From positions 909,380 through 973,379 of the forward strand of contig CAVOHG010000008.1 in NCBI GenBank assembly GCA_963695655.1: 64,000 nucleotides of DNA, given 5' to 3'. The notes beneath the pieces are model-generated. The model made no database searches. It saw only the letters and a list, made by a program, of their open reading frames with translations, and was not told the DNA's origin. The stretch comes from an uncultured Acidobacteriota bacterium (GTDB lineage Bacteria; Acidobacteriota; Vicinamibacteria; Vicinamibacterales; 2-12-FULL-66-21). Below, piece after piece: positions 40,709 to 63,524 of this stretch. The position numbers were made by a program, and so were the translations under genes. How positions within the stretch are numbered: position 1 is the first letter of the stretch; the number at the start of each line of letters is the position of its first letter.

Positions 40709-40721
<13 letters not shown>
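40642..40721. repeat. 22-nt tandem repeat (x2), then a third unit split by palindromic hairpin copy 4 (40687-40706)
   Basis: gcttccgcctcaaacctctgta / gcttccgcctcaaacctgtgta / gcttccgcc-ttcaggcggaag-cctcaaacctgtgta. The stop codon of the radical SAM gene lies inside the third unit. Confidence 0.85.
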
Positions 40722-42820
<2,099 letters not shown>

Positions 42821-43007
42821 ATGCCTCCGCAACACTCTTCTCGACGACGTGCGCGGGTGCCCGTGCGGCCCGCACACCAATCCAGCAAAAGAATATCGGG
42901 GGCCCCGTTCTCCCGTGCGCAAATTCAGCCAAATGGGCGATTTGTGGGGTGAACGGGCGGTATGCGGCGCGGGCGGGCGCAATCCGGAGCGGCAAGGCGA
43001 TCGAAAA

Positions 43008-44613: not shown

Positions 44614-44755
44614 GATGAACCTTCCCATTCCGCAACGGGCGCGTGCAGGCTCCGGGCGTTGCGCTTGCATTAGCATTGTACCGGGCGGCCACCGCCGACG
44701 CGAGCCGCGGGGCCCTTCCTGGTCGCCCACCTGCTGAAACACCGCAGGACTGCCA

Positions 44756-45928: not shown

Positions 45929-45944
45929 TGGCACCCCACTTGCC
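45929..45944 (+). promoter_or_regulatory. sigma-54 (-24/-12) promoter for beta-helix paralog P1
   Basis: TGGCACcccacTTGCc, a perfect TGGCAC-N5-TTGC, 120 nt upstream of the ATG at 46064 in a 570-bp lower-GC intergenic region. Confidence 0.75.
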
Positions 45945-46063: not shown

Positions 46064-48199
46064 ATGCCGGCAGCCGTGTGTCTTCGCACCGCCGCAGTCG
46101 CGGTACCGAATCCTGGTTTCAGCACCATCTTCCGCATCGGACTTGTCACCCTCCTCACGTTTGCCGCCGTCGTCACGATCTCTCCGACATCCGCTCACGC
46201 CGCCGACGTGGTTCTCGATGCCGCGTCGGGCACGCGGGCGGGCGCCTTCGTCGTCGTCAACGACAGCGCCGCAGCTGGCGGCACCGCGGCCGCGCTGCCG
46301 AACAAGGCACGGGCGAAGGTCGTCACGGCGGTGGCGGCACCTGCTGACTACCTCGAGCTGACGTTCACGGCGGATGCGAATACGCCCTATCACCTGTGGG
46401 TTCGCATGCGCGCCGAAACCAACTCGTACGCGAACGACTCCTTCCACGTCCAGTTCACCAACGTCGTCACCGGGGCCATCGGGACCACCTCGTCACAGGT
46501 GGTCAACCTCGAGGACGCCAGCAAACTGGGCGTGACCGGGTACGGGTGGCAGGACAACGGCTACGGCGCCGGCGTACTCGGCCCTGACATCGTGTTCTCA
46601 CGCGCCGGCACGCAGCGGCTGCGCATTCAGAACCGCGAAGATGGATTCGTCATCGATCAGATCGTGCTTTCGTCGGCTACCTACCTGCGCAAATCGCCGG
46701 GCCTGCTGAAGAACGATCAGACGTGGGTGCAGGACTCGCTGCAGCGGTCGCCGATCATCCAGGTACCAGCCGGGGCCGATCTGCAGGCCGCGCTGAACGG
46801 CGCCCGATCGGGCGACACGCTCGTGCTCGAGTCCGGCGCGCGCTACGTCGCGAATATCGACCTGCCGCCGAATGACGGCCCCGAGTACATCACCATCACT
46901 TCGGACGCCAACGTACCGCCCCCGGGAACGCGTGTGTCGCCGAACCTGCTCGGGCAGCTCGCCACCATCCAGTCGCCGGACGGCTGGCCGGCCGTCGTGG
47001 CGCGAACGGGCGCCAACTACTACAAGTTCGTTGGCGTCGTGTTTCGCGGCGTCGAAGGCGTTGCCAGCGGACTCGACACGACGAGGGACATCGTCAGCGT
47101 CGGCGACGGGACGGAGACGGACTCTGCGCTGCTGCCGTCGCATTTCGTCTTCGATCGTGTTCTCATCCGGGGGGATGCGATTTACGGCGCCAAGCGCGGC
47201 ATCCTCGGCAACGGCCACGACATCACGCTCATGTACAGCGACGTACGGACCATCTTCCGAAATGGCCAGGATACGAGCGGGTTCGGCTGCTACAACTGCG
47301 GCAAGACCTACCGCATCAACCACAACTGGATCGAGGCCGGAACCGAGGTCATCCTGTTTGGCGGCGCCGCATCGCCGGCGCACACGGTGGCTGAGGACAT
47401 CATCATCGAGGACAACGTCCTGACCCGTCCGCTCGCGTGGAAGGCGCTCGCCGGGCCAACCTACAACGTGAAGAACATCCTCGAGCTGAAGGAAGGCATC
47501 GGCGTGACGGTTCGGCGGAACTACCTGGAATACAACTGGCCGCCCTCGCAGCCGGGTTATGCGGTGCTGATCACGGCGAAGGATTCGAAAAAAATCGACC
47601 GCGTCCTCTTCGAAGACAATGTCGTCAAGAGCACGGCCGGGGCGATGAACATGCTCGGCTGGGACTACGCGACGAAGCTGCTTGCACCGACGTCGAACGT
47701 GACCGTCCGGAACAACCTCTTCGTGGTCTCGAAAAAGGACTACGGCGGGACCGGCTACTTTCTGCTGATTGGGTCAGCGCCGCGGAATATCCTCTTCGAC
47801 CACAACACCATCATTCACGACGGGACGACACTGGTGAACGCTTACACCGGCACCTACATCGGAGGGGACGGAAAGACGCATACCGATGGCACGATCGACG
47901 GCTTCGTCTGGACGAACAACCTGTCGCTCAATGGCCAGTACGGGTTCAACAGCTACGGGAGCATGAACGGCGCCGGCCTGCTGGCTGCGTTCCCCGGCAT
48001 CGTGATGCATGACAACGTCCTGGCGGGTTATACCGGCAAGTCGTACCCGGCGAACAACGATTACCCGAGCGCTGCCACGTTCATGTCGTACTTCGCGGAC
48101 TTCGCCGGTGCGGACTACCGCGTCCTGGCTACCGCGCCGCTAGGATCGGACGGCAAGAGGGTGGGCGCGGACGTCTCCCGTCTGCCGTCGAGGAAATAG
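46064..48199 (+). CDS. secreted right-handed beta-helix protein, paralog P1 (N-terminal lectin/CBM-like domain plus beta-helix)
   Basis: Signal peptide ...TISPTSAHA. CBM-like domain about 46205-46708 (YHLWVRMRAETNSYANDSFHVQF...GYGWQDNGYG...RIQNREDGFVIDQIVLSS). Beta-helix with motifs shared with P2-P4 (GADLQAALNGARSGDTLVLESG; AKRGI; WIEAGTEVILFGG; YFLLIGSAPRNILFDHNTI). Confidence 0.75.
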   Translation: MPAAVCLRTAAVAVPNPGFSTIFRIGLVTLLTFAAVVTISPTSAHAADVVLDAASGTRAGAFVVVNDSAAAGGTAAALPNKARAKVVTAVAAPADYLELTFTADANTPYHLWVRMRAETNSYANDSFHVQFTNVVTGAIGTTSSQVVNLEDASKLGVTGYGWQDNGYGAGVLGPDIVFSRAGTQRLRIQNREDGFVIDQIVLSSATYLRKSPGLLKNDQTWVQDSLQRSPIIQVPAGADLQAALNGARSGDTLVLESGARYVANIDLPPNDGPEYITITSDANVPPPGTRVSPNLLGQLATIQSPDGWPAVVARTGANYYKFVGVVFRGVEGVASGLDTTRDIVSVGDGTETDSALLPSHFVFDRVLIRGDAIYGAKRGILGNGHDITLMYSDVRTIFRNGQDTSGFGCYNCGKTYRINHNWIEAGTEVILFGGAASPAHTVAEDIIIEDNVLTRPLAWKALAGPTYNVKNILELKEGIGVTVRRNYLEYNWPPSQPGYAVLITAKDSKKIDRVLFEDNVVKSTAGAMNMLGWDYATKLLAPTSNVTVRNNLFVVSKKDYGGTGYFLLIGSAPRNILFDHNTIIHDGTTLVNAYTGTYIGGDGKTHTDGTIDGFVWTNNLSLNGQYGFNSYGSMNGAGLLAAFPGIVMHDNVLAGYTGKSYPANNDYPSAATFMSYFADFAGADYRVLATAPLGSDGKRVGADVSRLPSRK

Positions 48200-50550: not shown

Positions 50551-52464
50551 TTAGCGCAAAATCCGAACGCTCGACGGCGGACGCGGCACGGGCCCGCTCA
50601 CGATCGGGGGTGGGGCGGCCGGCACCGCTGGCAGCGCCGTGATGTCGACACCGATGTTGGTTCCGTCCGTTGCCGCGCCGGCGAGGATCCCACCGGCCAC
50701 AGCCCTGTAGTCAAATGCGGCAACGTCAACGAAGGCCGAAGGAAAGGTGCCGCTGAACACATTCCCCGACGGGTAGAGCGCCGCGCTCCCACCCTGCAGC
50801 CAGTTGCGCTGAAAGAACACGCCGGGAAAATACCTCGTCAGCGTCGGGTTCCCGTACGACGATGATGCCCCGTTCATGCCGTACTTGTTGTGGCGAAGGG
50901 CATTGTTGGCGAACCGGAAGCCCAGGATCGTCCGTGGGACCGTCGCTGTGCCGCCGTAAACGTACACCGCCGTCGTCCCGTCGAAGTCGATCGTGTTGTG
51001 TTCCACCGTCACGTTGCGCGGCTCGTCGCCAATCAGCAGGAACCAGCCGTTTCCTCCGAGCGCGGTCGTGACGCCGTAGAACAGATTGTGCGCAATGGTC
51101 ACGTCGGTGGTCTGGCGCGTCGGTCGCGACGGGATGTCATACCCCAGGAGGTTGATGCCAGCCGCGACGTTCCGAACAATGTTGAATCGGAACGTCACGT
51201 TGTCCACACCGCACCACGTGCACGCGCCTCCGGAATTTCTCGGCGTGAAGACGATCGCGTAGCCGGCTTGCGCCTGCTGCCAGTGATTCTCGAACACGTT
51301 CTGTTCGACGACCACGTTCCGGGCATTCTTCAATTCGAACACGTTCTTGACGACCCAGTAGGTCTCGCCCGACGTCGGCACCGCTTCGGCGGTCCCCGGC
51401 GAACCCCGGTCTGTGAACTCGGTCCCGGTCACGGTCCAGTACATGGACTCGCTCCCGCTAACGCGTCCGTAGACCCGATACTCCGTCGCGTCGTTCACGC
51501 GCTGCCAGGCGATCCGGATTCCGGCGCCGGTTGCGGCGGACACGGTCGCAACAGTTTCGGCTGACGCCAGCGACCGTCCGGTTGTTCCCTGACCGACCGG
51601 CCGCCGCGCTACCACGCGATAAGCGTACGCCCCGGGCCCCAGTGTCCCTCCGCCGGTCACTGCGGCGGCCGACACTGCGATCGGCGCCGGCACGATCGGA
51701 TCCCTCCAGGCCATCGGACGCGAAAGTTGGTTCTTGCGGAAGGTGATGCCGGTCGGCACCAGGTCGGTAATGGCGGGATCCGATCCGCCGAACATCACGT
51801 TCTCGCCTGCCGCCTCCAGGTAATTGTTTTCGATCGTGAATGGTCCGGGGCCGTTCCATCCGGCAATCGCCTGCGTGTCCATGCCGACACCCTTGCACTC
51901 GGAGACGTACGAGTCCCGAATGGTGACGGAGGCGGCGTTGAGTGCGATGCCGCGCTTCTGTCCGAGGAGCGGATCGCCATGCACGTACAGATGATCGAGG
52001 ATCAAGTCGTGCGGAATCTGATCCGCGGAGTTCTGTGCGCTCGATCCGTCGCCGAGCTGGATGACGTCGCCGCTGCCGTCGACATTGGCCGCGAAGGCGA
52101 GATAGCTGAGACGCCAGTGGTGCGCAGAAGGAGCCGTGCGAATCGCCGCCATGGTGTTCGGCGAGCGGAGTGTCGGCAGCAGTCGCAGGTGTGACGGGCC
52201 GATCCGGGCGCCGTCGGCGGGCAGCTGCGTGTCGGCGGTTGCGGAACGTACTCTGATGAAGCCTGCACCGCTGGTAACCGGCAACACGAAGTTGCCGACA
52301 TATTCGGCTCCCGCGTCGAGCAGAATCACGTCGCCCGGCTTCGCCGCGTCCAGTGCCGCCTGGAGATCCCCCCCCGCGGCAACTCGGACTGTGGCCGCCT
52401 CGGCGCTCACGGTCCAGAGCACGATCCCCGCCACGGCCAGCATCGCACGCGTGCGCGCGGTCAT
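50551..52464 (-). CDS. secreted right-handed beta-helix protein, paralog P2 (with FN3-like insert)
   Basis: Signal peptide MTARTRAMLAVAGIVLWTVSAEA. GGDLQAALDAAKPGDVILLDAG; HGDPLLGQKRGI; DTQAIAGWNGPGPFTIENNYLEAAGENVMFGG. Insert YRVVARRPVG...IRIAWQRVNDATEYRVYG. Confidence 0.75.
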   Translation of the reverse strand: MTARTRAMLAVAGIVLWTVSAEAATVRVAAGGDLQAALDAAKPGDVILLDAGAEYVGNFVLPVTSGAGFIRVRSATADTQLPADGARIGPSHLRLLPTLRSPNTMAAIRTAPSAHHWRLSYLAFAANVDGSGDVIQLGDGSSAQNSADQIPHDLILDHLYVHGDPLLGQKRGIALNAASVTIRDSYVSECKGVGMDTQAIAGWNGPGPFTIENNYLEAAGENVMFGGSDPAITDLVPTGITFRKNQLSRPMAWRDPIVPAPIAVSAAAVTGGGTLGPGAYAYRVVARRPVGQGTTGRSLASAETVATVSAATGAGIRIAWQRVNDATEYRVYGRVSGSESMYWTVTGTEFTDRGSPGTAEAVPTSGETYWVVKNVFELKNARNVVVEQNVFENHWQQAQAGYAIVFTPRNSGGACTWCGVDNVTFRFNIVRNVAAGINLLGYDIPSRPTRQTTDVTIAHNLFYGVTTALGGNGWFLLIGDEPRNVTVEHNTIDFDGTTAVYVYGGTATVPRTILGFRFANNALRHNKYGMNGASSSYGNPTLTRYFPGVFFQRNWLQGGSAALYPSGNVFSGTFPSAFVDVAAFDYRAVAGGILAGAATDGTNIGVDITALPAVPAAPPPIVSGPVPRPPSSVRILR

Positions 52465-52858: not shown

Positions 52859-54439
52859 CTATTGCCGCCGTCGCGATGTATCGCCGGTGGACTCGCTCGA
52901 TGCCGGCCGCTGCCGGCCACCTGGAGCGGCGGCCGAAATGTCGGCACCGAGGTCGTGGCGGTCGATGCCGCCGAGCCGATAGGGGGTGCTCGAAGCGAGC
53001 CGGTAATCCTGATCGGCAAAGTTGACGAACTGGCGCGCGAACTCTGCTTCGCTCGGGAACTCGTTACCCGGCGGGTACCGCGTCGCGCGGCCGCCGGCGA
53101 TCACATTGCGTGTGAAGACGGCATCGGGAAAGAACGTATCGAGCGTGTCCTGCCCGATCGCGCGACCCTGCCCATGGACGCCGTTGGCGTTGTGGAGCGT
53201 GAGATTGTTCGTGAAAGTGAAGTCCTCGATCGGCGTCGGGTTGCTGCCCGACCCTCCATACGCGCTGATGATGTCGCCCCTCTGGATGATCGTGTTATGG
53301 TCCACGACGATGTGCATCGGTCCGTTGCCGATCAGCAGGAAGAAGCCGTTCCCTCCCCAGCGCGCCTGATCGAAACTGTAAAACTGGTTGTTCAATATCC
53401 GGATCCGCTGCGCCAGCCCGCTCGGACCTGCGTCGTCGTGGCCGGAGATATTGATCGCGGCCGCAATGTTACGGACCACGTTGAATTGGAAGGTCACATC
53501 CTCGACCACCGCCCAGGACGCCTTCCCCCGTTCACCGCGCGGTGTGAGGACGATGGCGTAGCCCGCCTGCGCACCGGCCCAGTGGTGCTCGAAAACATTT
53601 CGTTCAATCAGGACGCGGCGCGCATTCTTCAGTTCGAGCAGATTCTTGACGTCCCAGCGCTCCTGGCGCCAGGATTCAGGTCGCGTGACATTGTTGCCGC
53701 GAAAGACGACGTCGGAGGGCACGATCCCCGAGATCCCGGGCTCCGCGCCGCCGAGCATGAAGTTCTCTCCCGCAGCTTCCAGGTAGTTGTTCTCGATCGT
53801 GAACGGCCCGGGACCATTCCAGCCGGCAATCGCCTGAGAGTCCTGGGACGCCGATTTGATGTCGGAGATGTACGACCCCCGAACGGTCGTCGACGCACTG
53901 TTCAAGCCGATTCCGCGCTTCTGCCCGTTGTCGGGATCCCCGTGGATGTAGCAGCGGTCGACCGTCAGGTCGTGGGGGACGTCGGACAGTGAATTCTGGC
54001 TCAGGGAGCCGTCGCCCAGATCGATGATCGTCCCGTTGCCTCCCTGGTTGGCCTGAAACTCGAGAAACAGCAGGCGCCAATGATGCGCCCGGGGTTCGGT
54101 GCGCATCGCTGGCTGCCCGTTGGAGGAATGCACCTTGGCGAGCGGCGCCGCGAGCTCGGGCGTCATCCGCCCGCTGCTCGAAACAGGATCTGTGGCGGTG
54201 GCGGTGCGGACGGTGATGACCTGACTGCCCGCTTTCGCCCGCAGGACGAAATTCCCGACGAATGTGGCTCCGGGCGGGAGGGTAATCGTGTCTCCTGGCT
54301 GCGCGCTATCGAGCGCCGCCTGTAAGTCTCCTCCGGCTCGGACCGGGATTGTGTCGGCGAACGCCCCGGGGGCGACGCCGAGACTGAGACTCGCCGCGAC
54401 AAAACAAACTCTGACGGCGGCGAAATGCTGATCAATCAC
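52859..54439 (-). CDS. secreted right-handed beta-helix protein, paralog P3 (minimal architecture)
   Basis: GTG start. GGDLQAALDSAQPGDTITLPPG; HGDPDNGQKRGI; DSQAIAGWNGPGPFTIENNYLEAAGENFMLGG; FFLLIGNGPMHIVVDHNTI. Confidence 0.75.
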   Translation of the reverse strand: MIDQHFAAVRVCFVAASLSLGVAPGAFADTIPVRAGGDLQAALDSAQPGDTITLPPGATFVGNFVLRAKAGSQVITVRTATATDPVSSSGRMTPELAAPLAKVHSSNGQPAMRTEPRAHHWRLLFLEFQANQGGNGTIIDLGDGSLSQNSLSDVPHDLTVDRCYIHGDPDNGQKRGIGLNSASTTVRGSYISDIKSASQDSQAIAGWNGPGPFTIENNYLEAAGENFMLGGAEPGISGIVPSDVVFRGNNVTRPESWRQERWDVKNLLELKNARRVLIERNVFEHHWAGAQAGYAIVLTPRGERGKASWAVVEDVTFQFNVVRNIAAAINISGHDDAGPSGLAQRIRILNNQFYSFDQARWGGNGFFLLIGNGPMHIVVDHNTIIQRGDIISAYGGSGSNPTPIEDFTFTNNLTLHNANGVHGQGRAIGQDTLDTFFPDAVFTRNVIAGGRATRYPPGNEFPSEAEFARQFVNFADQDYRLASSTPYRLGGIDRHDLGADISAAAPGGRQRPASSESTGDTSRRRQ

Positions 54440-54456: not shown

Positions 54457-57429
54457 TTATCCAAATGCTGTGCCAGCGAGAGATGCGCGCGGTGACATAT
54501 ACCAGGGGTCATCCGGCAGCACTAACAGATTAAATCGAGGCGCGCTGGTTGATATCGCGCCCGGAGGTCCGCCGAGTGACCTCCGGGGGGCCGTAGACAA
54601 ATGGGTGCGGTCGAGCGCGAGTGGGTCCGCGACGTCTGGACTGATGTAAGGACCTGAAGCTGGCGCGACCAGGCTCGACGACGCGCCGCCAACCGTCGCG
54701 GTCGTCTGCCCGGTGTTCGACAACCCCTCATCATCGGTCACGGTCAGAAGCACTGGGTAGGTTCCGGGCCGCGCGTAATGATGAGAGGTGCTTGCGCCGG
54801 GCGCCGTGCCGATCGACGCCGGCACGACTGTCGTGTCGTTGCGGGTGGCGCCCGGTGCGGACTGGTAGTACTCGCTCGAGCTGAGGATCAACTGATCCCA
54901 GGCGATCCCGTCTTCGCGCGCCTGGATCCGAATGGTCTGGAAGCCTGACGCCGCGAAATAGATTGGCGGGGCGAGGCTGCCGTACGCGCCGTCATTCCAA
55001 CCCCAGCCCGAGACGCCGACGCCCTGGGCGTCCTCGAGGACGACCGCCATGCCCGACGTCGTACCGATACGCGCCAGGGGTGCTCCGGACTGATCGATCG
55101 CGCCGCTGAACTGCACGTACAGCGAGTCGTTCGAGTAGGAGTTCCCGGCTGCCTGCATCCGCATCCACAGCCGATACGGTACTCCGGCGGCAACCGCAAC
55201 TCGGAACTCCACGAAACTGCTGGGAGCGGCGAGCGCCGTCGTCAGTTTCGCCGCACCGCGATCCGGATTGCGCAGAGCCGTCCCCCCGGCGGCGCCGGCG
55301 ACCGATTCTTTCACCCACGCGGTCCCGTGGACGGCCGCCGCGGGCAGACTGGCCGCACGCACCAGCAGTTCGTCGCCCCATTGCCAGGTGAAATCCACGA
55401 TCGAGCCGTCGGGATCCGATGATGCCGTTCCGCTTACCGGCAGAGCCACACCGGCGAGGCCGGTGTAGGGACCGCCCGGACGTGCAACGGGCGCCTGGTT
55501 GGACGGGTCGGTCGGCGGCGGCGGGGGCGGTGGCGGTGGCGCATCCGTCGAACCCGGGACCCCCGCCATCGCTGCCGACAAGGCGGTAAAATCCACGCCC
55601 GGTGTGCGGCCCGAACAACCAGCGGACGCCACGGCGCTGCCGGCACGGAGCCGGTAGTCCTCGGCCGCGGGATTCTGAAATGACGCGGTCCACTCTGCCG
55701 TCGTGGGGAACGCGTTGGGCTTCGGATAGAGCGATGCCGAGCCTCCGGCCAGCACGTTACAGGAAACCGTTGAACTGGGGAAATAACGGGTGATCGTCGG
55801 TATGCCGGTGGTGGAACCGTCCCCCATTATCCCGTATTTATTGTGGAGCGAGATGTTGTCCGTGTAGACGAAGGAGGGAATCGTCCGCGTGCCGTATGCG
55901 TAAACGACCGAGCTGTTCGTATGCACGAGCGTGTTGTTGTCGATCGTGACCTCGGATGGGCCGTCGCCGATGAGGAACGCCTTGGCCAACCCGCCATACG
56001 TCGTGTTGTTGATGTCGTACATGAGGTTGTTGCGGACGGTGATGCGTTCGGTCCGCAGGGTGACGCCAGTGTCGTCGAACCCTGACAGATTCAGCACCCC
56101 GGCGGCGCGGCGGATCGTGTTGTTCTGGATGACGATGTCGCGTACGCGTGACCACGGCGCAGTATTGGCCGCGTTGCGGGGAGTCAGCACGATGGCGTAA
56201 CCATACTGGCCGGCCGACCAGATGTTTTCGAGGACATTGCCCTCGACCCGCACCCGTTCCGCGTTCTTCATTTCGAGGATGTTCTTCACCACCCACTTCG
56301 TGCCGGAACTGGCGGGTGTCCCGGACAGCTCGGACGCGCCGGTATATGTAAAGCTTGTCGCCGAGGACGGCGTATCGACATACACATTTTCCGCGCCCGG
56401 CGTCGTCGACCGGTAGATTCTGTACCGATCCGCCCCCGTCGTACCCGACCAGCTCAGTGTGACGGCGCGGCCGGCGGGCACTGACAAAGAGACTTCGGTC
56501 GAGGGCGCGGATAGCGCCACTCGAGTGCCCGTCGTCATCACTGCAACGACGCGGAAATAGTGGGTCGCGGCCTTGAGCACTCCCGTACCCGCGAGAGCGA
56601 CTTTGGCAGATCCGGGTGTGGCGAGGATGGCGTTTCGCCACGCGAACGGCTTGGTCAACGTGTTGCGACGCACCGAGATATCGGAGGGGACGAGACCCGT
56701 GATCGCCGGATCGGCGCCGCCAAACAGAATGTTCTCCGCCGCGGCTTCGATGTAGTTGTTGTCGATCGTCAGGGGCCCCGCGCCGTTGTAGCCGACGATG
56801 CCCTGGGAGTCGGCGTTCACCGCCTTGATATCGGAGATATAGCTGCCGAGGACAGAGAGTCGGACGCCATTGAGCGTCAGGCCGCGTTTCTGCCCCTTGT
56901 AGCGATGCCCGTGGACGTAAACGCGGTCGAGCACGACGTCGCTCGGCGGCGCGACCGACGTATCTTCACCGAGTTGAATCAGCGTCTCGTATCCGACGTG
57001 CTCGACACCGTCGAACTCGAGAAACCGCAGCCGGTATCCATGCGCGCCCGGCTCCGCGCGTAACAGGGGCGCCGTCTTGTAGGCGCCGCCTTTGCCGATG
57101 ATTCGAGCGAGCAGCGTTCGCGAGGTATTCGAGGCGGGCCGGTCGTTCGGCACCAGGCGGACACCCGCGGCGGGGAACACCGAATCGGCTGCATCCGACC
57201 GGATATCGATCCAACCCGTTCCGCTCTTCGCCCGGAGCACGAGATGGACGACGAAGGTTTCGCCGGCGCGCAGGAGCACAGTGTCTCCATAGTGGGCCGC
57301 ATCGACGGCCGCCTGCGGACTTGTATAGGTGCACCCGGACGCGCACACGCTAAGGGTGGCCCCCCGCACGGGAGCAACGCAGATGCCCAGAATGCCGAGG
57401 GCAAGCGGAAGCAGCAACCGATGTCTCAT
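54457..57429 (-). CDS. secreted right-handed beta-helix protein, paralog P4 (beta-helix with FN3-like insert, poly-Pro linker, PKD domain carrying a nested lectin/CBM-like domain)
   Basis: 990-aa ORF. Signal peptide MRHRLLLPLALGILGICVAPVRG. DSQGIVGYNGAGPLTIDNNYIEAAAENILFGG. PPPPPPPPP at 55513-55539. PKD halves SSDPDGSIVDFTWQWGD and HHYARPGTYPVLLTVTDDEG flank a copy of the P1 CBM-like domain. Confidence 0.75.
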   Translation of the reverse strand: MRHRLLLPLALGILGICVAPVRGATLSVCASGCTYTSPQAAVDAAHYGDTVLLRAGETFVVHLVLRAKSGTGWIDIRSDAADSVFPAAGVRLVPNDRPASNTSRTLLARIIGKGGAYKTAPLLRAEPGAHGYRLRFLEFDGVEHVGYETLIQLGEDTSVAPPSDVVLDRVYVHGHRYKGQKRGLTLNGVRLSVLGSYISDIKAVNADSQGIVGYNGAGPLTIDNNYIEAAAENILFGGADPAITGLVPSDISVRRNTLTKPFAWRNAILATPGSAKVALAGTGVLKAATHYFRVVAVMTTGTRVALSAPSTEVSLSVPAGRAVTLSWSGTTGADRYRIYRSTTPGAENVYVDTPSSATSFTYTGASELSGTPASSGTKWVVKNILEMKNAERVRVEGNVLENIWSAGQYGYAIVLTPRNAANTAPWSRVRDIVIQNNTIRRAAGVLNLSGFDDTGVTLRTERITVRNNLMYDINNTTYGGLAKAFLIGDGPSEVTIDNNTLVHTNSSVVYAYGTRTIPSFVYTDNISLHNKYGIMGDGSTTGIPTITRYFPSSTVSCNVLAGGSASLYPKPNAFPTTAEWTASFQNPAAEDYRLRAGSAVASAGCSGRTPGVDFTALSAAMAGVPGSTDAPPPPPPPPPTDPSNQAPVARPGGPYTGLAGVALPVSGTASSDPDGSIVDFTWQWGDELLVRAASLPAAAVHGTAWVKESVAGAAGGTALRNPDRGAAKLTTALAAPSSFVEFRVAVAAGVPYRLWMRMQAAGNSYSNDSLYVQFSGAIDQSGAPLARIGTTSGMAVVLEDAQGVGVSGWGWNDGAYGSLAPPIYFAASGFQTIRIQAREDGIAWDQLILSSSEYYQSAPGATRNDTTVVPASIGTAPGASTSHHYARPGTYPVLLTVTDDEGLSNTGQTTATVGGASSSLVAPASGPYISPDVADPLALDRTHLSTAPRRSLGGPPGAISTSAPRFNLLVLPDDPWYMSPRASLAGTAFG

Positions 57430-57470
57430 CGTACTCCTGAAGAAGAGTCTGAACTTGAGACAGCGCTTGG

Positions 57471-57486
57471 TGCATCGGATGTGCCT
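57471..57486 (-). promoter_or_regulatory. candidate sigma-54 promoter for P4-P3 operon
   Basis: Minus strand reads aGGCACatccgaTGCA (GGCAC-N6-TGCA, GG-N10-GC spacing correct), about 45 nt upstream of the ATG at 57429. Confidence 0.6.
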
Positions 57487-57634
57487 GCCGTCGTAAAAGC
57501 ATTACTTACAATGCTTTACTGAAGTCGCGCTGATCTGGCTCGAGGGCTGCGTCCGGTAACGCAACTGAGCCTTATGTAGTACTTACCTCGCCGGGAGAAA
57601 AAGGCAGGACCGCGACGATATACCGATGCGCGAA

Positions 57635-57865
57635 TTAAGCGGCGCGCCGCACAGCCGCCGCGAGACCGATCAGCGCGGTGCCTACGAGCACCATCGCGGC
57701 CTCGTCACGCATTCCGGTGGCAGGAATCCCTACGCGCTGGACGGCTACCGGTGCCGCCGCATTCTCGCGCGGCTCAGCAGCCGCCCCGCGGCCGGCGGCC
57801 GCGACCGAAACGACCGCTGCCGCGGCCAGCACTGCAAACAAGACAACCACGAACTGCCTACGCAT
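57635..57865 (-). CDS. small secreted protein with C-terminal sorting-signal-like tail
   Basis: 76 aa from an internal ATG: MRRQFVVVLFAVLAAAAVVSVAAAG (signal peptide), a short Ala/Pro-rich core, then GIPATG-MRDEAAMVLVGTALIGLAAAV-RRAA. Confidence 0.45.
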   Translation of the reverse strand: MRRQFVVVLFAVLAAAAVVSVAAAGRGAAAEPRENAAAPVAVQRVGIPATGMRDEAAMVLVGTALIGLAAAVRRAA

Positions 57866-57976
57866 GACCCTGTGACCTCTGTCGTTCTCTGAATCGGCCG
57901 CCGGATATTTCCGCGACGCGCGGTGAGGCGACCTCATCGGTAATGCATGCGCTCACGCATCACCAACGTTCGACGC

Positions 57977-57992
57977 TACAAGCGACGTGCCA
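57977..57992 (-). promoter_or_regulatory. weak sigma-54-like site upstream of the small gene
   Basis: Minus strand reads TGGCACgtcgcTTGTa: perfect -24 element, but -12 is TTGT instead of TTGC. About 110 nt upstream of 57865. Confidence 0.3.
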
Positions 57993-58205
57993 GTCACAAC
58001 ACGAACATTAAGGCGCTATCGTGAATCTTGCGCTCCGCGGGCAGTGAGGACGTGGAATACTTTTTCCCAAGTTCGCCCAATCAGAGGATTCCAGGCTGTT
58101 GAGGTACGCTTTTTGAATACAAGTCGTATCCGAGTTGAGACTGTGTTACCTGAACTACCCATCGGCTGGGTCGTACACCCACCATATTTCCCTGCAGGGA
58201 GTTAG

Positions 58206-59720
58206 ATGAAGAACCCCTACGTCGCCATTGTGGACGACGACTCGTCGTTTGCGAACTACTTGCGGACGTTCCTTTCGCTGCGTGGTTACGAAGCTCGGTG
58301 CTACACGCGCGGCGACGAACTGCTCGCATCGATGAAGCAGACCGAGGCGCCAGACGTGATCCTGCTCGACGTCATGATGCCCGGTCTCGACGGCCTCGCT
58401 ACGCTGCGGGCTCTCAAAGCCTCCCGCCCCGAGGCGCAGGTCATCATGCTCTCGGGCCGGAACCAGGCCTCGACGATCGTGGAAGCGGTCCGCCTCGGAG
58501 CGGCTGACTACGTCGTCAAGCCGGACGATCCTGAAGGTCTCGGCGAGATTGCGCTCGACGTGGCGATCAAGAATGCGATCGAGAAGAACCGCCTCGTGAC
58601 CGAGCTCCTCGACCTCCGGCAGCAGCTGAGCGACGACGAGGATCGCGCGGTCTGGGGTAACTCCGAGAAGATGCGGGGGATCGCCACGGTGATCGAGCAG
58701 GTCGCGGATAGCGACGTCACCGTCCTCATCCGTGGAGAGAGCGGCGTGGGCAAGGAGCTGGTGTCGCGCGCCATTCACCAGCGGTCGACGCGACGCAACC
58801 GCCCGTTCGTCAAGGTCAACTGCGCCGCGCTTCCGGCCGAGCTGCTCGAAAGCGAGCTCTTCGGCCACGAACGGGGAGCGTTCACCGGCGCCGCCACGAC
58901 CCGAATCGGAAAGTTCGAACAGGCCGACACCGGCACGCTGATGCTCGACGAAATCGGCGAGATGAAGCCGGCGCTGCAAGCCAAGCTGCTCCACGTTCTG
59001 CAGGACGCCGAGTTCACCAAGCTTGGCAGCAACAAGCGGATCCAGGTCGACGTCCGCATCGTCGCCGCCACCAACCGTGACCTCGAGAAGATGATGCTGA
59101 GCGGCGATTTCCGGGAGGATCTCTATTACCGGCTCAAGGTCATCGAGCTGACCGTTCCGTCGCTGCGCGAGCGCCCTGACGAGGTCCCGACGCTCACCGA
59201 TTTTTTTGTCGCCCGATACTCACGCAAATACAACCGCCCGCTGCGGCCGATCTCGGATGAGCTTCGGCAGCTCTTTCTCCAGTACGACTGGCCGGGGAAC
59301 ATCCGCGAGCTCGAGAACATGATCAAGCGCGTCGTAATCCTCCAGGACGAGCATCTGGTCGTTCACGAGATCCAGCGGAACCTTCAGCGCCACGCGGCCA
59401 TGCAGGTCGCGGCAGTCGCACCCGTGACGATGGCGGCGGCCGTCGGCATCCCGGTCGCGGCAGGCGTTGGTGCGATGCCAGGCTCTTTCGGTCCGCCTGA
59501 GCTCGACACGGAATCGACCGACGAGCCGGAGTCGATTGAAGAAGGGAATGGATCGCTCGCTTCAGTCGCGAAGGCCGCATCGATGAAGGCTGAGCGCGCG
59601 GCGATCGAACAGACGCTCGGGCAAGTGCACTGGAACCGACGCAAGGCGGCTCAGATTCTGGGTGTGAGCTACAAGACGCTGCTCAATAAAATCAAGGAGT
59701 GTGGCATCAGCCGCGCCTGA
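58206..59720 (+). CDS. sigma-54-dependent response regulator (REC-AAA+-Fis HTH), NtrC/PrsR-like
   Basis: REC with DVILLDVMMPGLDG. AAA+ GESGVGKE. GAFTGA loop (ERGAFTGA). HTH NRRKAAQILGVSYKTLLNKIKECGI. An unusual ~70-aa Ala/Val/Pro-rich linker precedes the HTH. Confidence 0.93.
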   Translation: MKNPYVAIVDDDSSFANYLRTFLSLRGYEARCYTRGDELLASMKQTEAPDVILLDVMMPGLDGLATLRALKASRPEAQVIMLSGRNQASTIVEAVRLGAADYVVKPDDPEGLGEIALDVAIKNAIEKNRLVTELLDLRQQLSDDEDRAVWGNSEKMRGIATVIEQVADSDVTVLIRGESGVGKELVSRAIHQRSTRRNRPFVKVNCAALPAELLESELFGHERGAFTGAATTRIGKFEQADTGTLMLDEIGEMKPALQAKLLHVLQDAEFTKLGSNKRIQVDVRIVAATNRDLEKMMLSGDFREDLYYRLKVIELTVPSLRERPDEVPTLTDFFVARYSRKYNRPLRPISDELRQLFLQYDWPGNIRELENMIKRVVILQDEHLVVHEIQRNLQRHAAMQVAAVAPVTMAAAVGIPVAAGVGAMPGSFGPPELDTESTDEPESIEEGNGSLASVAKAASMKAERAAIEQTLGQVHWNRRKAAQILGVSYKTLLNKIKECGISRA

Positions 59721-59733
59721 GCCGTATCGCGAA

Positions 59734-59763
59734 GAGGGAATGATCGTTCGCGATCATTCCCTC
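59734..59763 (+). terminator. hairpin terminator between the two bEBP genes
   Basis: Perfect 13-bp stem gagggaatgatcg / cgatcattccctc closed by a TTCG loop, followed by a moderately T-rich tract (ctgttcttcc). Confidence 0.6.
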
Positions 59764-59894
59764 CTGTTCTTCCCTCTCGTCTACCTACAGTAAGCACCCA
59801 GCTTCCACATTCACTCCCGCTCACCTCCCCGACCACGTCAGTTAGCAGTCGCAACGCCGAGCGTTTTCCATACAACGCGAAACATTTTCTCTCG

Positions 59895-59910
59895 TGGCAC
59901 CCACCTTGCT
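59895..59910 (+). promoter_or_regulatory. sigma-54 (-24/-12) promoter for the second bEBP / EPS export operon
   Basis: TGGCACccaccTTGCt, a perfect TGGCAC-N5-TTGC, 60 nt upstream of the ATG at 59970. Confidence 0.8.
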
Positions 59911-59969
59911 GAACGACGAGCTGTGTACTTTCCCACGTCGACGCGTCGATTCTCCTGGAGCGGCATCCG

Positions 59970-61094
59970 ATGAACGATCGCGACAAGGCCGGCCGCGGCG
60001 AACCTGACGTGCCGGAGGGCGGCGAGCGCCGCCACGGCCGTCCCACGCGTGTCATCGGCGAGCTCCTGGGCACGAGCGACAAGATGCGGGAGGTGCGCGA
60101 TCTCATCGATCGCGTCGCTGACACCGACGTCACCGTGCTGGTGCGTGGCGAGAGCGGCACCGGTAAGGAGCTCGTTGCGCGCGCCATCCACGCCAGCTCG
60201 CCGAGGAAGAACCGCACGTTCGTGAAGGTGAATTGCGCGGCGTTGCCGTCCGAACTCCTCGAATCCGAGCTCTTCGGTTTCGAGCGTGGCGCATTCACCG
60301 GCGCGATTCAGCAGAAACCGGGAAAGTTCGAATTCGCGCACGAAGGGACGATGTTTCTCGACGAGATCAGCGAGATGCATCCGCCGCTTCAATCCAAGCT
60401 GCTGCAGGTGCTTCAGGACGGCGAGTTCGCGCGACTTGGCGGCCGCGAAGATGTCCACGTCGATGTTCGCATCGTCGCCGCCACCAACCGCGATCTCGAG
60501 GTCGCGGTCGCTGACGGCCACTTTCGCGAGGACCTGTTCTTCCGGTTGAACGTGGTCTGCATCACGCTGCCGCCGCTGCGTCAGCGGCGCGACGAGATCC
60601 CCGTGCTGACCGAACGCTTCCTGCGCCAGTACGCGGAGCACTACAACAAGCCCCCGATCACGCTGGCCGCCGAGACGATGCGGCTGTTCGGGGTCTACGA
60701 CTGGCCCGGCAACGTGCGGGAGCTCGAGAACCTGCTGAAGCGGGCGGTCGTTCTTGGTTCCGACGAATCGATCCGTCGTGAGCTTGCGGAAAACATCGCC
60801 GGACGGACGCCCGTGCCGGGAACGATCCCGGCGCTGCAGTCGCGAGCAGAGGTGGACGTCGCGGTCGCGCCGGCGGTGATCGCCGGGGCCGAGGGAGTGG
60901 CGCTGCCTCCCGCGCTCTCGGGGTCGCTCAAGGACATCGCGCGCCATGCCGCGCGCGAAGCCGAGCGCGAACTGATCTATCGCACGCTGCAGCAGACGCG
61001 CTGGAACCGCCGGGAAGCAGCGGAAATCCTGGGCGTCAGCTACAAGGCGCTGCTCTACAAAATCAAGGAAGCGGAGCTCGACAAGGCATCGTGA
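59970..61094 (+). CDS. sigma-54-dependent transcriptional activator lacking a receiver or sensory domain (AAA+-Fis HTH only)
   Basis: Only about 35 aa precede the AAA+ core (GESGTGKE, ERGAFTGA). HTH NRREAAEILGVSYKALLYKIKEAEL. Confidence 0.9.
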   Translation: MNDRDKAGRGEPDVPEGGERRHGRPTRVIGELLGTSDKMREVRDLIDRVADTDVTVLVRGESGTGKELVARAIHASSPRKNRTFVKVNCAALPSELLESELFGFERGAFTGAIQQKPGKFEFAHEGTMFLDEISEMHPPLQSKLLQVLQDGEFARLGGREDVHVDVRIVAATNRDLEVAVADGHFREDLFFRLNVVCITLPPLRQRRDEIPVLTERFLRQYAEHYNKPPITLAAETMRLFGVYDWPGNVRELENLLKRAVVLGSDESIRRELAENIAGRTPVPGTIPALQSRAEVDVAVAPAVIAGAEGVALPPALSGSLKDIARHAAREAERELIYRTLQQTRWNRREAAEILGVSYKALLYKIKEAELDKAS

Positions 61095-61570
61095 CTGCTG
61101 ACTCCTTCCTTGACGAGGATTTCCGGGTGCTGACCTCAGAAGCGTTCGACTTCGTGCTGAACAACGAGCTGAAGCGGGCGGTCAGGTCACAGAACTTCCT
61201 GACGCTCGTGCATGTCGAACCAACCGTGCGCGGCGCGCAGAACGGCGGCCACGGCGACCGCGACAAGGCCGTCCGCGAGATTGCCCGACTGATCAGCCGC
61301 GAAGTCCGCGAAACCGATCTCCTGGCGCACACCGCGAACGGCCGGCTGTCGATCGTGCTGCTCGACGCCGACATGCCGAACTCGATGGGGGTCATCGAAC
61401 GCCTGATGTCCCGTCTCGACCACTACGAATTCACGCAGCCGCTCGCCATCGAGGTTGCAGCCGCCTGTTGCCCCACGCACGGCGCCGACGTGGATTCGCT
61501 CCGTCGCGCCGCCGAAGCGCGGCCAGTTCACCCCCGCCGCGACACCCGCGGCAACGCTTCGAACGCCTAA
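61091..61570 (+). CDS. degenerate GGDEF-like domain protein (no GGDEF motif)
   Basis: GTG start overlaps the bEBP stop (GTGA). FDFVLNNELKRAVRSQNFLTLVHVE ... RETDLLAHTANGRLSIVLLDAD follows the GGDEF fold pattern, with ANGRL in place of GGDEF/GGEEF. Confidence 0.5.
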   Translation: MTADSFLDEDFRVLTSEAFDFVLNNELKRAVRSQNFLTLVHVEPTVRGAQNGGHGDRDKAVREIARLISREVRETDLLAHTANGRLSIVLLDADMPNSMGVIERLMSRLDHYEFTQPLAIEVAAACCPTHGADVDSLRRAAEARPVHPRRDTRGNASNA

Positions 61571-61584
61571 CCGAAGGTGAGTGT

Positions 61585-62307
61585 ATGAGGATCACAACCA
61601 CTGCCCCGTTCTCTATCGCGATTCTGCTGAGCATGGCGACCATGGCCGGTGCACAGACGAGCGCGGGGGCCGCGTCTTCGTCCTCGCGACCGGCGCAGCC
61701 GCCGGCCGACACCGCGGCCCCGGTGATGCCGGCCACGCCGGCGACGAACACGCCATCCGCGCCGACGACCGCGCCATCGTTGCCGCCGGCAAAGCCGGAC
61801 AACACCGCGTCAGCGAATACGTCACCCGACTACCGCCTCGTCCCCGGGGACAAGCTTCGCATCGAGGTCTACCGCGATGCGCAGCTGTCGCAGTCGCTCC
61901 AGATCCGGCCGGACGGAAAGATCACGATGCCGCTCATCGGCGACGTGTCCGCCGAGGGCCGGACCGCCACCGAACTGCGCGATTCGCTCGTGACCTCGCT
62001 CAAGGAATACAACACCAACCCGGTTGTGACCGTGATCGTGGTCGAGACCGTTCCGCCGGTGTTCTATGTGATGGGCGAGGTGAATTCGCCCGGGACCTTC
62101 CCGATCAAGGGGCAGGTGTCGGCGGTTCAGGCGCTGGCCATGGCCGGCGGCTTCAAGGACTTCGCAAAGACGAAGGACATCAGCGTGCTGCGTAAACGGG
62201 CCGGTGGTGGTATGCACGAAACCCTGAAGTTCAACTACAAGGACGCGCTCAGAGGTAAGGGAGAGCCGATCTATCTCCAGCCCGGCGACACGATCATTGT
62301 CCCGTAG
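61585..62307 (+). CDS. polysaccharide export protein (Wza/EpsE-like: Poly_export plus SLBB)
   Basis: Signal peptide. YRLVPGDKLRIEVY...IRPDGKITMPLIGDVSAEGRTATEL...VMGEVNSPGTFP...VQALAMAGG...LQPGDTIIVP. Confidence 0.9.
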   Translation: MRITTTAPFSIAILLSMATMAGAQTSAGAASSSSRPAQPPADTAAPVMPATPATNTPSAPTTAPSLPPAKPDNTASANTSPDYRLVPGDKLRIEVYRDAQLSQSLQIRPDGKITMPLIGDVSAEGRTATELRDSLVTSLKEYNTNPVVTVIVVETVPPVFYVMGEVNSPGTFPIKGQVSAVQALAMAGGFKDFAKTKDISVLRKRAGGGMHETLKFNYKDALRGKGEPIYLQPGDTIIVP

Positions 62308-62332
62308 GACCGGAGAGACACCGAGGCAACTC

Positions 62333-63524
62333 ATGCGAACGAACCTCGTCGTCCGAGCTGTTGGAATCGTGATTCTCCTCGCGCCTTGGCCGATTGCCGC
62401 GCAGGAGGTGGAGACCCTGTCCGGGAGCCTGCCGGGCTGGAGCGTCACGCCCGGCATCAGCGTTGGCGCGGGGTATGACTCGAACGTTGCATTGCAGAAT
62501 ACGCCTGCGGACACGGGACAGACGGTCTCCGACGAACTGATTCTCATACAACCCACGGCGCAGCTCGATTTCCTGTCGCCGCGGACCCAGTTCTCCAGCG
62601 GGTACCACGGAAACGTGCGGCGGTACTTCGAGCTGGATCAGCTGAACGGTTTCGACCAGCAGGGGTACGCATCGCTCCGACGGCTGGCATCCAAACGCGT
62701 GACTCTCGCGATGAGTGAGAACTACGCCCGGACTCCGACGACTGACGAACTCGAGCTCTATGGCGTGCCGTTCCTTCGGACGGGTGCGCGGCGTAATACG
62801 TTCGGCGGCGGTGTCGATACGCGACTGACGAAGTTCATGGACCTGTCTGTCGGTGTCGACCACACCTGGGTGGCGTTCGACCGCACGAGCAGCCTGCTGA
62901 CGGGCGGCTGGGTCGCGGGCGGGCGGGTCGCCCTGAGCCGCCGGATGCGCGAGCACCTCTCGGTCGGCGGCGAGTACCGGCTGCGCTTCGCGGAGATGAA
63001 CGAAGACACCCGCAACCTGACATTCCAGGACGCCGGCGCGACGGTTCGGATCGGGCTCGCCCAGCGGACGAGCGTCGGGGCCGCGGTCGGCCTCGCGTTT
63101 TTGAACGATCGGTCACTCGGGGAAAAGCGCCAGGGGCCATACGTACCGAGCCGACGTGACGCGGAACACGGAGCGCGTGACAATCGGCGCCGCATTCGAG
63201 CGGACATTTGTACCGTCGTTCGGCTTCGGGGGCTCGAGTCAGAGCGAAATGGTCCGCGGCTACGTCCGCATGCCGCTCGAACGGAACCGGATGTATGTGG
63301 AGGCAGCCCTGTCCTGGCGCCGCAGCGACCCATTCCTGAACGACGCGTTGGTTCTCCAGACGACCACGCTGCGCTCCGCCGTTGGATACTCGCTGGCGCG
63401 TCACCTGCGGCTCGAAGGCGTTTACGCGCTCAGCCGCCAGGACACGCCGGTCGCTGGCGGTGACGTCAACCGTTCGCGGATAGGTGTCCAGATCGTCGTC
63501 TCCCAACCCATGAGGATCCAGTGA
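62333..63524 (+). CDS. outer-membrane beta-barrel protein of EPS loci (PEP-CTERM-system-associated type), one frameshift near 63145
   Basis: Signal peptide MRTNLVVRAVGIVILLAPWPIAAQE. Alternating beta-strand pattern (GISVGAGYDSNV, TAQLDFLS, VGGEYRLRF). Continuation is in ORF 63156-63524 and ends with barrel-like strands. Length is 3n+1. Confidence 0.6.

Follow-up and report, generated by a model that had tools for sequence, protein, structure and literature searches.

The stretch of DNA analysed here (the window) comprises 64,000 nucleotides of contig CAVOHG010000008.1, from an uncultured Acidobacteriota bacterium of the order Vicinamibacterales. Towards its 3ʹ end, two genes for bacterial enhancer-binding proteins (bEBPs), designated bEBP1 and bEBP2, are arranged in series with a gene for a degenerate GGDEF-like protein and with genes for the export of exopolysaccharide (EPS). 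A 13-bp hairpin and a sigma-54 promoter reside between the two bEBP genes, which yields the order bEBP1, hairpin, promoter, bEBP2, GGDEF-like gene and EPS export genes (Table 1). The genes and their domains are recognizable, the promoter, its flanking dyads and the inhibitory site (I-site) of the GGDEF-like protein are conserved, and the adjacency of bEBP and GGDEF-like genes is maintained across lineages. Judged by these features, the locus most likely encodes a two-input sigma-54 circuit for EPS, in which a phosphorylation-controlled activator would switch on a sensor-less activator together with its probable cyclic di-GMP (c-di-GMP)-sensing partner and the EPS genes.

We scanned a single genome for each species and recovered 67 loci for comparison, all encoding the GGDEF-like protein (50-97% identity). 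Most of these relatives are metagenome-assembled genomes, some of them frameshifted, and the homologues found in the bEBP2 and GGDEF-like searches are labelled Acidobacteriota or Vicinamibacterales. The triad of two bEBPs and a GGDEF-like protein upstream of EPS genes, described in the original prediction, is kept in 66 of the 67 genomes. A short bEBP2 gene lies directly 5ʹ of the GGDEF-like gene in 66 of the 67 loci, and a receiver-bEBP1 is encoded upstream in 56, with the remainder mostly cut by contig ends.

Two sigma-54 activators and a GGDEF-like protein

Profile searches place a Response_reg domain at residues 6-112 of bEBP1, in agreement with the receiver originally assigned to the first activator, followed by Sigma54_activat at residues 150-315, an AAA lid and HTH_8. 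In the translation, D10/D11, D55, S83 and K105 are recognizable as receiver residues. This protein is unusually conserved: among the 56 loci with a receiver, 55 have one that is 85-100% identical, and the GAFTGA loop is intact in all 55 orthologues scored. A small soluble protein of 245 amino acids with a HisKA match only is encoded by an open reading frame (ORF) at 44756-45493 (+), just 5ʹ of a sigma-54 promoter match at 45929, and is a candidate partner for bEBP1.

For bEBP2, Pfam searches identify Sigma54_activat, which begins at residue 33, and after it a lid and HTH_8 (residues 329-367), with nothing N-terminal to these domains. The description of this protein as lacking a receiver or sensory domain had been open to the objection that its start was wrongly called. 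An in-frame stop codon, however, lies 19 codons 5ʹ of the ATG, within the -12 element of the promoter, and no ATG, GTG or TTG occurs between the two; in addition, the best 120 homologues are 335-394 amino acids long and carry the same Pfam set. The upstream stop and the short homologues leave no N-terminal extension to be found, so a mis-called start is ruled out, and on this sequence evidence bEBP2 is truly domain-less. Its ATG is positioned about 75 nucleotides after the promoter and is kept among close relatives.

The two activators resemble each other closely. Both match PF00158 (E-values of 3e-72 for bEBP1 and 8.5e-71 for bEBP2) and PF02954 (HTH_8), both carry a GESGxGKE Walker A motif and a GAFTGA loop, and the helix-turn-helix (HTH) domain is kept in their orthologues. 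This is the domain set of NtrC-family bEBPs, and ATP-dependent activation of the sigma-54 holoenzyme is predicted for each. They are 50-53% identical across the AAA+ and HTH regions, and their HTH recognition helices differ at two positions only (SYKTLLNKIKE versus SYKALLYKIKE). The GAFTGA loop of bEBP2 is intact in 57 of 63 orthologues; the remaining loci (L022, L046, L053, L054, L055 and L062) carry the degenerate forms GAVAGA, GSFAGP, GACPGA, GAFTVA and GAFPGA. Assignment of either protein to a named equivalog (PrsR, NtrC, AtoC, NifA or PspF) was rejected because every score is below the respective cut-off. On TIGR02915 (PrsR; cut-off 502.6 bits), for example, bEBP1 scores 372.5 bits and bEBP2 328.7, and on TIGR02974 (PspF; cut-off 443.55 bits) bEBP2 scores 286.2. 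The two proteins are PrsR-like in context only.

The GGDEF-like ORF overlaps the stop codon of bEBP2 by GTGA, as had been noted from the sequence, and this coupling is widespread. Among the 67 loci, the stop and start overlap by four nucleotides in 25 and by one nucleotide in 34, giving an overlap in 59, and a gap of only 2-3 nucleotides is present in 7 more. The encoded protein matches the Pfam GGDEF family weakly (26.8 bits against a cut-off of 23.8) and falls below the cut-off of NCBIfam TIGR00254 (31 versus 37.4 bits). An AlphaFold (AF2) model nevertheless has the GGDEF fold, with a predicted local distance difference test score (pLDDT) of 82, a predicted template modelling (pTM) score of 0.79 and template modelling (TM) scores of 0.65-0.71 to solved GGDEF domains. 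At 159 amino acids, a length shared by nearly all close relatives (76-97% identical), the protein comprises a single GGDEF fold in which we found neither a membrane segment nor a further domain.

The position of the GG[DE]EF motif is occupied by ANGRL, which bears out the earlier description of the protein as degenerate, and is variable in the family (e.g. EKGML, DDGEL, PNGQA). With its active-site motif lost and free to vary, this protein is therefore not a diguanylate cyclase. In an alignment reaching down to 27% identity, R32, R73, D76 and P128 alone are invariant, with R104 conserved to at least 90%. R73-x-x-D76 precedes the GGDEF position by five residues, which is the canonical distance of an I-site, and aligns with the RPAD of the c-di-GMP-bound GcbC domain 5euh. 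R104 lies 18 residues past the position of the motif's final Phe, a spacing from which we take it to be the equivalent of the second I-site arginine, R390 of PleD. To judge from this alignment, no part of the family is better conserved than the I-site, the c-di-GMP-binding pocket of cyclases, even though catalysis has been lost. The protein has the sequence features of an I-site receptor, and binding of c-di-GMP is predicted.

The family extends far beyond Vicinamibacterales. An exhaustive search returned 645 representatives of 50% identity clusters that match it at E ≤0.001, and eight contexts of distant members, 27-35% identical to the window protein, were viewed. The GGDEF-like gene directly follows a short bEBP gene (347-372 amino acids) in five of these eight contexts (L068, L070, L072, L073 and L076), a receiver-bEBP gene in L075 and a bEBP gene cut by the contig end in L069; in L074, no bEBP was called beside it. 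L070 presents another tandem pair, in which a GAF-bEBP precedes the short bEBP. (I/V)SYKxLLxKIK is an HTH signature common to all of the distant bEBPs, which are nearer to bEBP2 than to bEBP1. The gene 3ʹ of the distant GGDEF-like members varies (a 450-amino-acid unknown, NusG, Poly_export/wza or an unrelated convergent gene), and EPS genes are usually nearby. Within the order, locus L048 lacks bEBP2, and the GGDEF-like gene directly follows bEBP1. Because adjacency persists in distant contexts and in L048, the conserved unit is, as gene order indicates, a bEBP gene plus the GGDEF-like gene, and the bEBP is most often domain-less. A PilZ-domain gene, a second c-di-GMP-related neighbour, is located about 430-450 nucleotides 5ʹ of the short bEBP gene in L068, L072, L073 and L076.

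In Acidobacteriota and no fewer than two further distant lineages, I-site-only GGDEF proteins are encoded right after an activator gene at the heads of EPS loci, with a candidate enhancer dyad (GGNAA-N4-TTNCC) in common. We tentatively propose, while giving the idea rather less than an even chance, that these proteins of 140-165 amino acids form a new class of c-di-GMP effectors that would serve as detachable sensor subunits of mostly domain-less sigma-54 activators. If this is true, c-di-GMP gates sigma-54 transcription by way of a trans-acting protein rather than by binding to the activator, and domain-less bEBPs are subject to a new mode of control beside those exerted by PspA, HrpV and FleN. 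A literature search, itself incomplete, for pairs of a bEBP with a free-standing I-site GGDEF protein, or for EPS regulation in Vicinamibacterales, returned general analogues only.

Sigma-54-type promoters and flanking dyads

The perfect sigma-54 promoter reported between the two bEBP genes is an exact match to TGGCAC-N5-TTGC, with GG and GC elements at canonical -24/-12 spacing (59895-59909), and an rpoN- and activator-dependent transcription start is predicted. Two exact matches occur in the 64 kb of the window, against 0.14 expected, and both lie 5ʹ of genes on the coding strand. TGGCA[CT]-N5-TTGC is kept in 55 of 56 bEBP1-bEBP2 intergenic regions that are otherwise divergent. Of 68 sites matching the strict 16-mer in 1.16 Mb, about 54 are the bEBP2 promoter. 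No sigma-70-like promoter was found in a search of positions 57400-62400. The promoter is conserved 5ʹ of bEBP2 and was originally taken to drive that gene; it most likely serves the entire tightly packed EPS operon rather than bEBP2 alone. A 12-bp palindrome, TCGACGCGTCGA, is present in the bEBP2 leader at 59937-59948 (+) and is kept only in the closest relatives.

Promoter-anchored alignment of the relatives revealed two flanking elements. The first is a distal dyad whose family is almost confined to this site, since 15 of its 16 matches in 1.09 Mb sit 97-108 nucleotides 5ʹ of the promoter. This is the position expected of an enhancer, for which the dyad is a candidate. The second is a proximal element, 18 of whose 33 matches are found at -21/-22 from the promoter; inspection of this element by eye for the integration host factor (IHF) consensus WATCAANNNNTTR gave no convincing match.

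Two further conserved sigma-54-type promoters lie 5ʹ of bEBP1, and these, together with a small PEP-CTERM-like gene, were missed in the original prediction. The first faces away from bEBP1. Its pattern, TGGCAY-N5-TTG[TA]A, is found on the minus strand in 33 of 52 loci, mostly 208-248 nucleotides upstream of the bEBP1 ATG, and in about 22 of 28 listed loci it is followed by an orthologue of approximately 75 codons with the same C-terminal tail as the small secreted protein of the window. This tail (...VAVQRV..G[ML]RDEAAMVLVG[ST]ALIGLAAAVRRAA) has RDE where PEP would be (REE or PEE in some relatives), a hydrophobic stretch and RR. The small protein has no match in Pfam or NCBIfam, including the PEP-CTERM model TIGR02595; a PEP-CTERM call by hidden Markov model (HMM) was therefore rejected, and the likeness is one of resemblance only.

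The second, a candidate promoter with -24/-12 spacing, faces bEBP1. GAGGTAC-N5-(C)TTGAA has 37 exact matches in the 67 loci when both strands are considered, all of them 71-132 nucleotides 5ʹ of the bEBP1 ATG, and close variants of the block occur in about 10 more loci. Between the two promoters lies the dyad GGAATACTTTTTCC, centred at about -95 from the transcription start site (TSS) of the small gene and about -67 from the candidate TSS of bEBP1. Its pattern, GGMAA-N4-TTKCC, has 12 matches in 1.09 Mb, of which nine are upstream of the bEBP1 ATG and eight fall within -131 to -159. Half-sites in the bEBP1 leader include YTACMCAY, which is common to the distal dyad of the bEBP2 promoter, and 11 of the 50 matches to this octamer are at -41 to -50 from the bEBP1 ATG.

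Related elements precede the bEBP genes of the distant lineages. In L068, L072, L073 and L076, the short bEBP gene is preceded by a GGNAA-N4-TTNCC dyad, placed at -130 to -132 relative to TGGGTA-N5-TTGC, and in L070 the sequence GTGGTAATTGATTACCAC occurs at -155 from TGGAAT-N5-TTGC. A further site, TGGTAT-N5-TTGCT, is found in front of the receiver-bEBP of L075. All five matches to the dyad expression in 95.9 kb are in front of distant bEBP genes.

The hairpin that follows bEBP1 had been described as a terminator. Its stem, GAGGGAATGATCG-TTCG-CGATCATTCCCTC, is perfect and includes 7 GC pairs, and it folds with a z-score of -3.1, such that none of 200 shuffles folds as well. Its tail, CTGTTCTTCC, has 5 T in 10 bases and no T run longer than 2, and a U-tract is lacking both in the window and after the hairpins of relatives. 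In 43% of 53 loci, compared with 7% of shuffles, a stem of at least 9 bp is present after the bEBP1 stop and ahead of the promoter; these hairpins differ in sequence and vary in position. The perfect hairpin itself thus stands; with the U-tract missing and comparable structures in only that minority of relatives, a function as terminator or as 3ʹ-end stabilizer is no more than plausible.

Table 1. Features of the regulatory region and the first EPS genes, in window coordinates.
Feature	Position	Strand	Remarks
Small secreted protein, 76 aa	57635..57865	-	Signal peptide and conserved PEP-CTERM-like C-terminal tail
Sigma-54-type promoter of small gene, TGGCACgtcgcTTGT	57978..57992	-	-12 is TTGT, not TTGC
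Dyad GGAATACTTTTTCC (GGMAA-N4-TTKCC), candidate enhancer	58054..58067	.	Between small-gene and bEBP1 promoters
Candidate bEBP1 promoter, GAGGTACgctttTTGAA	58101..58117	+	Sigma-54 spacing GG-N10-G, non-canonical -12
Half-sites GTTACC ... CTACCCAT in bEBP1 leader	58145..58162	+	YTACMCAY common to distal bEBP2-promoter dyad
bEBP1, REC - AAA+ (GAFTGA) - HTH_8	58206..59720	+	504 aa; NtrC/PrsR-like response regulator
Hairpin, 13-bp stem, TTCG loop	59734..59763	+	Candidate terminator or stabilizer of bEBP1 transcript 3ʹ end; no U-tract
Distal dyad TACCTACAGTAAGCA (TRCYYA-N3-TRRGYA)	59782..59796	.	Candidate enhancer (upstream activating sequence, UAS) of bEBP2 promoter; centre about -132 from TSS
Proximal element TTTCCATACAACGCGAAA (TTTCB-N7-9-VGAAA, often then TTTCC)	59865..59882	.	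Centre about -48
Sigma-54 promoter TGGCACccaccTTGCT of bEBP2/GGDEF-like/EPS operon	59895..59910	+	Exact TGGCAC-N5-TTGC
bEBP2, AAA+ (GAFTGA) - HTH_8	59970..61094	+	374 aa; no regulatory domain
GGDEF-like protein	61091..61570	+	159 aa; active site (A-site) lost (ANGRL); I-site R73, D76, R104 conserved
Wza-like polysaccharide export protein (Poly_export + SLBB)	61582..62307	+	Probable start ATG 61582 within ORF 61468-62307
PEP-CTERM-system-type outer-membrane protein gene	62297..63524	+	Frameshifted near 63120-63170; intact L014 orthologue matches two frames

Proposed circuit and its alternatives

We read this locus, with confidence somewhat short of even, as the regulatory head of an XrtA/PEP-CTERM-type EPS locus whose control would be wholly sigma-54-based and would combine a phosphorylation input with a c-di-GMP-sensing partner. 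In this scheme, bEBP1 would act as a phosphorylatable NtrC/PrsR-like response regulator that binds the distal dyad about 132 nucleotides upstream of the bEBP2 transcription start and, from there, fires the conserved sigma-54 promoter. The resulting operon would carry bEBP2, the GGDEF-like gene and then the wza, outer-membrane protein, chain-length, tyrosine-kinase and priming-transferase genes. bEBP2 is a natural sensor-less activator, and the overlap of stop and start would keep its output at a fixed ratio to that of the GGDEF-like protein. The GGDEF-like protein, incapable of c-di-GMP synthesis, would bind c-di-GMP and switch bEBP2 on or off as a detachable regulatory subunit. Finally, bEBP2 would act through GGMAA-N4-TTKCC dyads on further sigma-54 promoters, namely that of the divergent small gene and possibly that of bEBP1, the latter constituting feedback.

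Two comparative arguments, drawn from natural variants, bear on which activator fires which promoter. In the six loci with a degenerate bEBP2 GAFTGA loop, the sigma-54 promoter of bEBP2 is retained, and therefore another activator must fire it there. This argues that bEBP1, whose loop is invariably intact, is the obvious activator in those loci. The small-gene promoter is absent from all five testable loci in which bEBP2 is absent or degenerate (L022, L048, L053, L054 and L062) and present in 33 of the 47 others. A hypergeometric estimate for this association is about 0.005, a figure to be read in light of loci that are not phylogenetically independent and represent about three independent events. 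Together with the dyads in front of short bEBP genes in distant lineages, these two observations favour a route from bEBP1 to the bEBP2/EPS operon, from bEBP2 to the small gene, and perhaps from bEBP2 to bEBP1. The activator cascade originally suggested thus draws support from promoter retention in loci with a degenerate bEBP2, and the matching of individual dyads to individual bEBPs stays provisional.

Positive autoregulation could instead be the only link, with bEBP2 activating its own promoter through the upstream dyads and bEBP1 regulating just the divergent small gene. A bEBP with a divergent sigma-54 target is a classical layout, and L068, L072, L073 and L076, which have no adjacent sensor bEBP, carry a dyad at -130 from a sigma-54-like site 5ʹ of the short bEBP. 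However, the loci that keep the promoter after bEBP2 has lost GAFTGA do not fit this arrangement, and the GGMAA-N4-TTKCC pattern found 5ʹ of short bEBPs elsewhere is not that of the distal dyad at the bEBP2 promoter. A pure self-loop would also need some other input to start, because sigma-54 promoters have little basal activity. We therefore regard autoregulation alone as unlikely.

A second alternative concerns the GGDEF-like protein, which might act as a c-di-GMP receptor on the EPS machinery post-translationally rather than on bEBP2, its position then reflecting operon order. Degenerate GGDEF I-site receptors such as PelD, PssE and YdaK are established activators of polysaccharide synthesis, and in Vicinamibacterales the gene is directly 5ʹ of wza. 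Yet the constant neighbour is a bEBP (seven of eight distant contexts) and it is the downstream gene that varies. The near-universal coupling to bEBP2 and the bare single-domain architecture likewise speak against direct action on the machinery, to which we assign only a small probability. The earlier suggestion that the GGDEF-like protein is a bEBP partner or c-di-GMP receptor is consistent with the invariant I-site and with bEBP adjacency; as the protein also follows receiver-bEBPs, a simple replacement of the missing domain does not describe it.

It is also conceivable that bEBP1 and bEBP2 form mixed hexamers that act jointly at the same enhancers, such that the bEBP1 receiver supplies phosphorylation control. 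HrpR/HrpS and FleQ/FleT are known to co-assemble as mixed bEBP oligomers. The adjacent, paralogue-like genes with their similar AAA+ and HTH regions and nearly identical recognition helices would suit such an assembly, as would the tandem genes of L070, in which a sensor bEBP of GAF type accompanies a short one. Set against this are the separate promoters, the hairpin between the genes in many loci and, in distant lineages, short bEBPs with no adjacent sensor bEBP, which together make joint hexamers quite unlikely. Finally, a single read-through operon of bEBP1, bEBP2 and the following genes, with a non-functional or minor -24/-12 match, would be compatible with the missing U-tract, with the many relatives that have no hairpin and with the near abutment of bEBP1 and bEBP2 in L053, L054 and L062, but is very improbable given the rarity of exact motif matches in the window and the preservation of the promoter in 55 of 56 divergent intergenic regions, with flanking dyads at fixed positions.

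Several observations weigh against the phosphorylation- and c-di-GMP-controlled circuit that we prefer. No histidine kinase gene was found near bEBP1, nor an rpoN gene, in the window or in relative L077. The near identity of the HTH helices makes the assignment of dyads to proteins weak, and shared sites or mixed oligomers are therefore possible. The proximal element at -48 is too near for a classical enhancer, and the sub-clade of L053, L054 and L062 lacks both dyads as well as the small-gene promoter but keeps the bEBP2 promoter, directly against the bEBP1 stop. At -12, the small-gene and bEBP1 promoters read TTG[TA]A rather than TTGC. Because the hairpin has no U-tract and is absent from more than half of the relatives, read-through from bEBP1 may contribute to expression. 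Lastly, since the GGDEF-like gene also directly follows receiver-bEBP genes (L048, 8417-10471; L075, 3558-5471), its association is not confined to activators that lack a sensory domain.

Through their EPS, Vicinamibacterales shape the aggregation of soils, where they rank among the most abundant bacteria. The proposed circuit offers three conserved sigma-54-type promoters along with defined candidate enhancers.

Related systems and neighbouring genes

Cascades in which one bEBP activates the sigma-54 promoter of a second bEBP gene are familiar from flagellar regulation, where FlrA acts on FlrC, FleQ on FleR and, in Rhodobacter sphaeroides, FleQ on FleT. FleT of R. sphaeroides is a truncated second bEBP that works together with FleQ. 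The link proposed here, from one bEBP to the sigma-54 promoter of another, is of the same kind. Unlike the flagellar cascades, its target is EPS, and bEBP2 keeps its HTH, has no N-terminal domain and is paired with a GGDEF-like protein.

Domain-less bEBPs can receive their signals from separate proteins. For PspF and HrpR-HrpS, activity depends on a partner, the product of a separate gene, that binds to the AAA+ domain. Control in trans has been described for the pairs PspF/PspA and HrpR-HrpS/HrpV (PMC4641369). Like these activators, bEBP2 consists of AAA+ and HTH only; it differs in scoring below the PspF cut-off and in that its candidate partner is a GGDEF fold with a nucleotide pocket.

Several proteins with a degenerate GGDEF domain, including PelD, PssE, YdaK, PopA and SgmT, retain an RxxD I-site and serve as c-di-GMP receptors, often linked to polysaccharides. 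The GGDEF-like protein has likewise lost its active site and kept the RxxD motif. However, those receptors include membrane, receiver or kinase modules and work as adaptors or at the post-translational level, whereas the GGDEF-like protein is a bare 159-amino-acid domain whose conserved partner gene encodes a sigma-54 activator. Control of EPS transcription by c-di-GMP through NtrC-family regulators is documented for FleQ, BerB, Nla24/EpsI and VpsR, and FleQ also needs the accessory protein FleN (PMC3424551, PMC5552954, PMC4877007, PMC6158489). There, the bEBP is the protein that binds c-di-GMP, whereas here the conserved pocket is on a separate small protein encoded beside the bEBP.

The most similar genomic setting is that of PrsK/PrsR. 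Haft et al. (2006; PMC1569441) described small single-gene operons for proteobacterial PEP-CTERM proteins that have a sigma-54 promoter and an upstream activator motif, associated with PrsR. Both settings feature a sigma-54-dependent response regulator at an EPS locus, which here is putatively of PEP-CTERM type, and the layout of the small gene here mirrors that of the single genes for sorting-tail proteins, with a sigma-54 promoter and an activator motif tens of nucleotides 5ʹ. The differences are also considerable: neither bEBP reaches the TIGR02915 cut-off, the adjacent genes include neither PrsK nor PrsT, the tail in the window is RDE rather than PEP, the organism belongs to Acidobacteriota rather than Proteobacteria, and an extra domain-less bEBP and a GGDEF-like gene are placed under their own sigma-54 promoter.

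The EPS export genes originally noted after the GGDEF-like gene are a Poly_export/SLBB gene, which begins 12 nucleotides after the GGDEF-like stop, and an outer-membrane protein gene, whose frameshift is due either to a sequencing error or to its being a pseudogene. The tightly packed 3ʹ genes of relatives are wza followed by those for the outer-membrane protein, Wzz, a ParA-like tyrosine kinase, Bac_transf, a flippase, NTP-transferase, CofD and AAA_22. The priming transferase of L014 scores 502.8 bits on TIGR03013 (XrtA/PEP-CTERM; cut-off 393). TIGR03027, TIGR03007, TIGR03018 and TIGR03016 are best matches, including for the chain-length and kinase genes of L014, but below their cut-offs. The stretches covered revealed no exosortase gene.

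Elsewhere in the window, the only other exact TGGCAC-N5-TTGC is at 45929-45943 (+), 5ʹ of an ORF at 46064-48199 (+) for a secreted protein of 711 amino acids with a signal peptide, a region resembling a carbohydrate-binding module (CBM) and a beta-helix, and with no family match. Secreted beta-helix paralogues are encoded at 50551-52464 (-), 52859-54439 (-) and 54457-57429 (-), one of which has PKD domains, and two are preceded by sigma-54-like sites with one mismatch, at 52609 (-) and 54475 (-). A sigma-54 regulon of secreted beta-helix proteins may therefore exist beside the EPS locus. Unrelated to the circuit, the ORF at 43621-44742 (-) encodes MsrP, the catalytic subunit of protein-methionine-sulfoxide reductase (475 bits, above the cut-off). 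The radical-SAM protein encoded at 40709-42982 (-) has the tetraether lipid synthase Tes as its best NCBIfam match (315 bits, below the cut-off of 450), and is of interest with regard to membrane-spanning lipids in Acidobacteriota.

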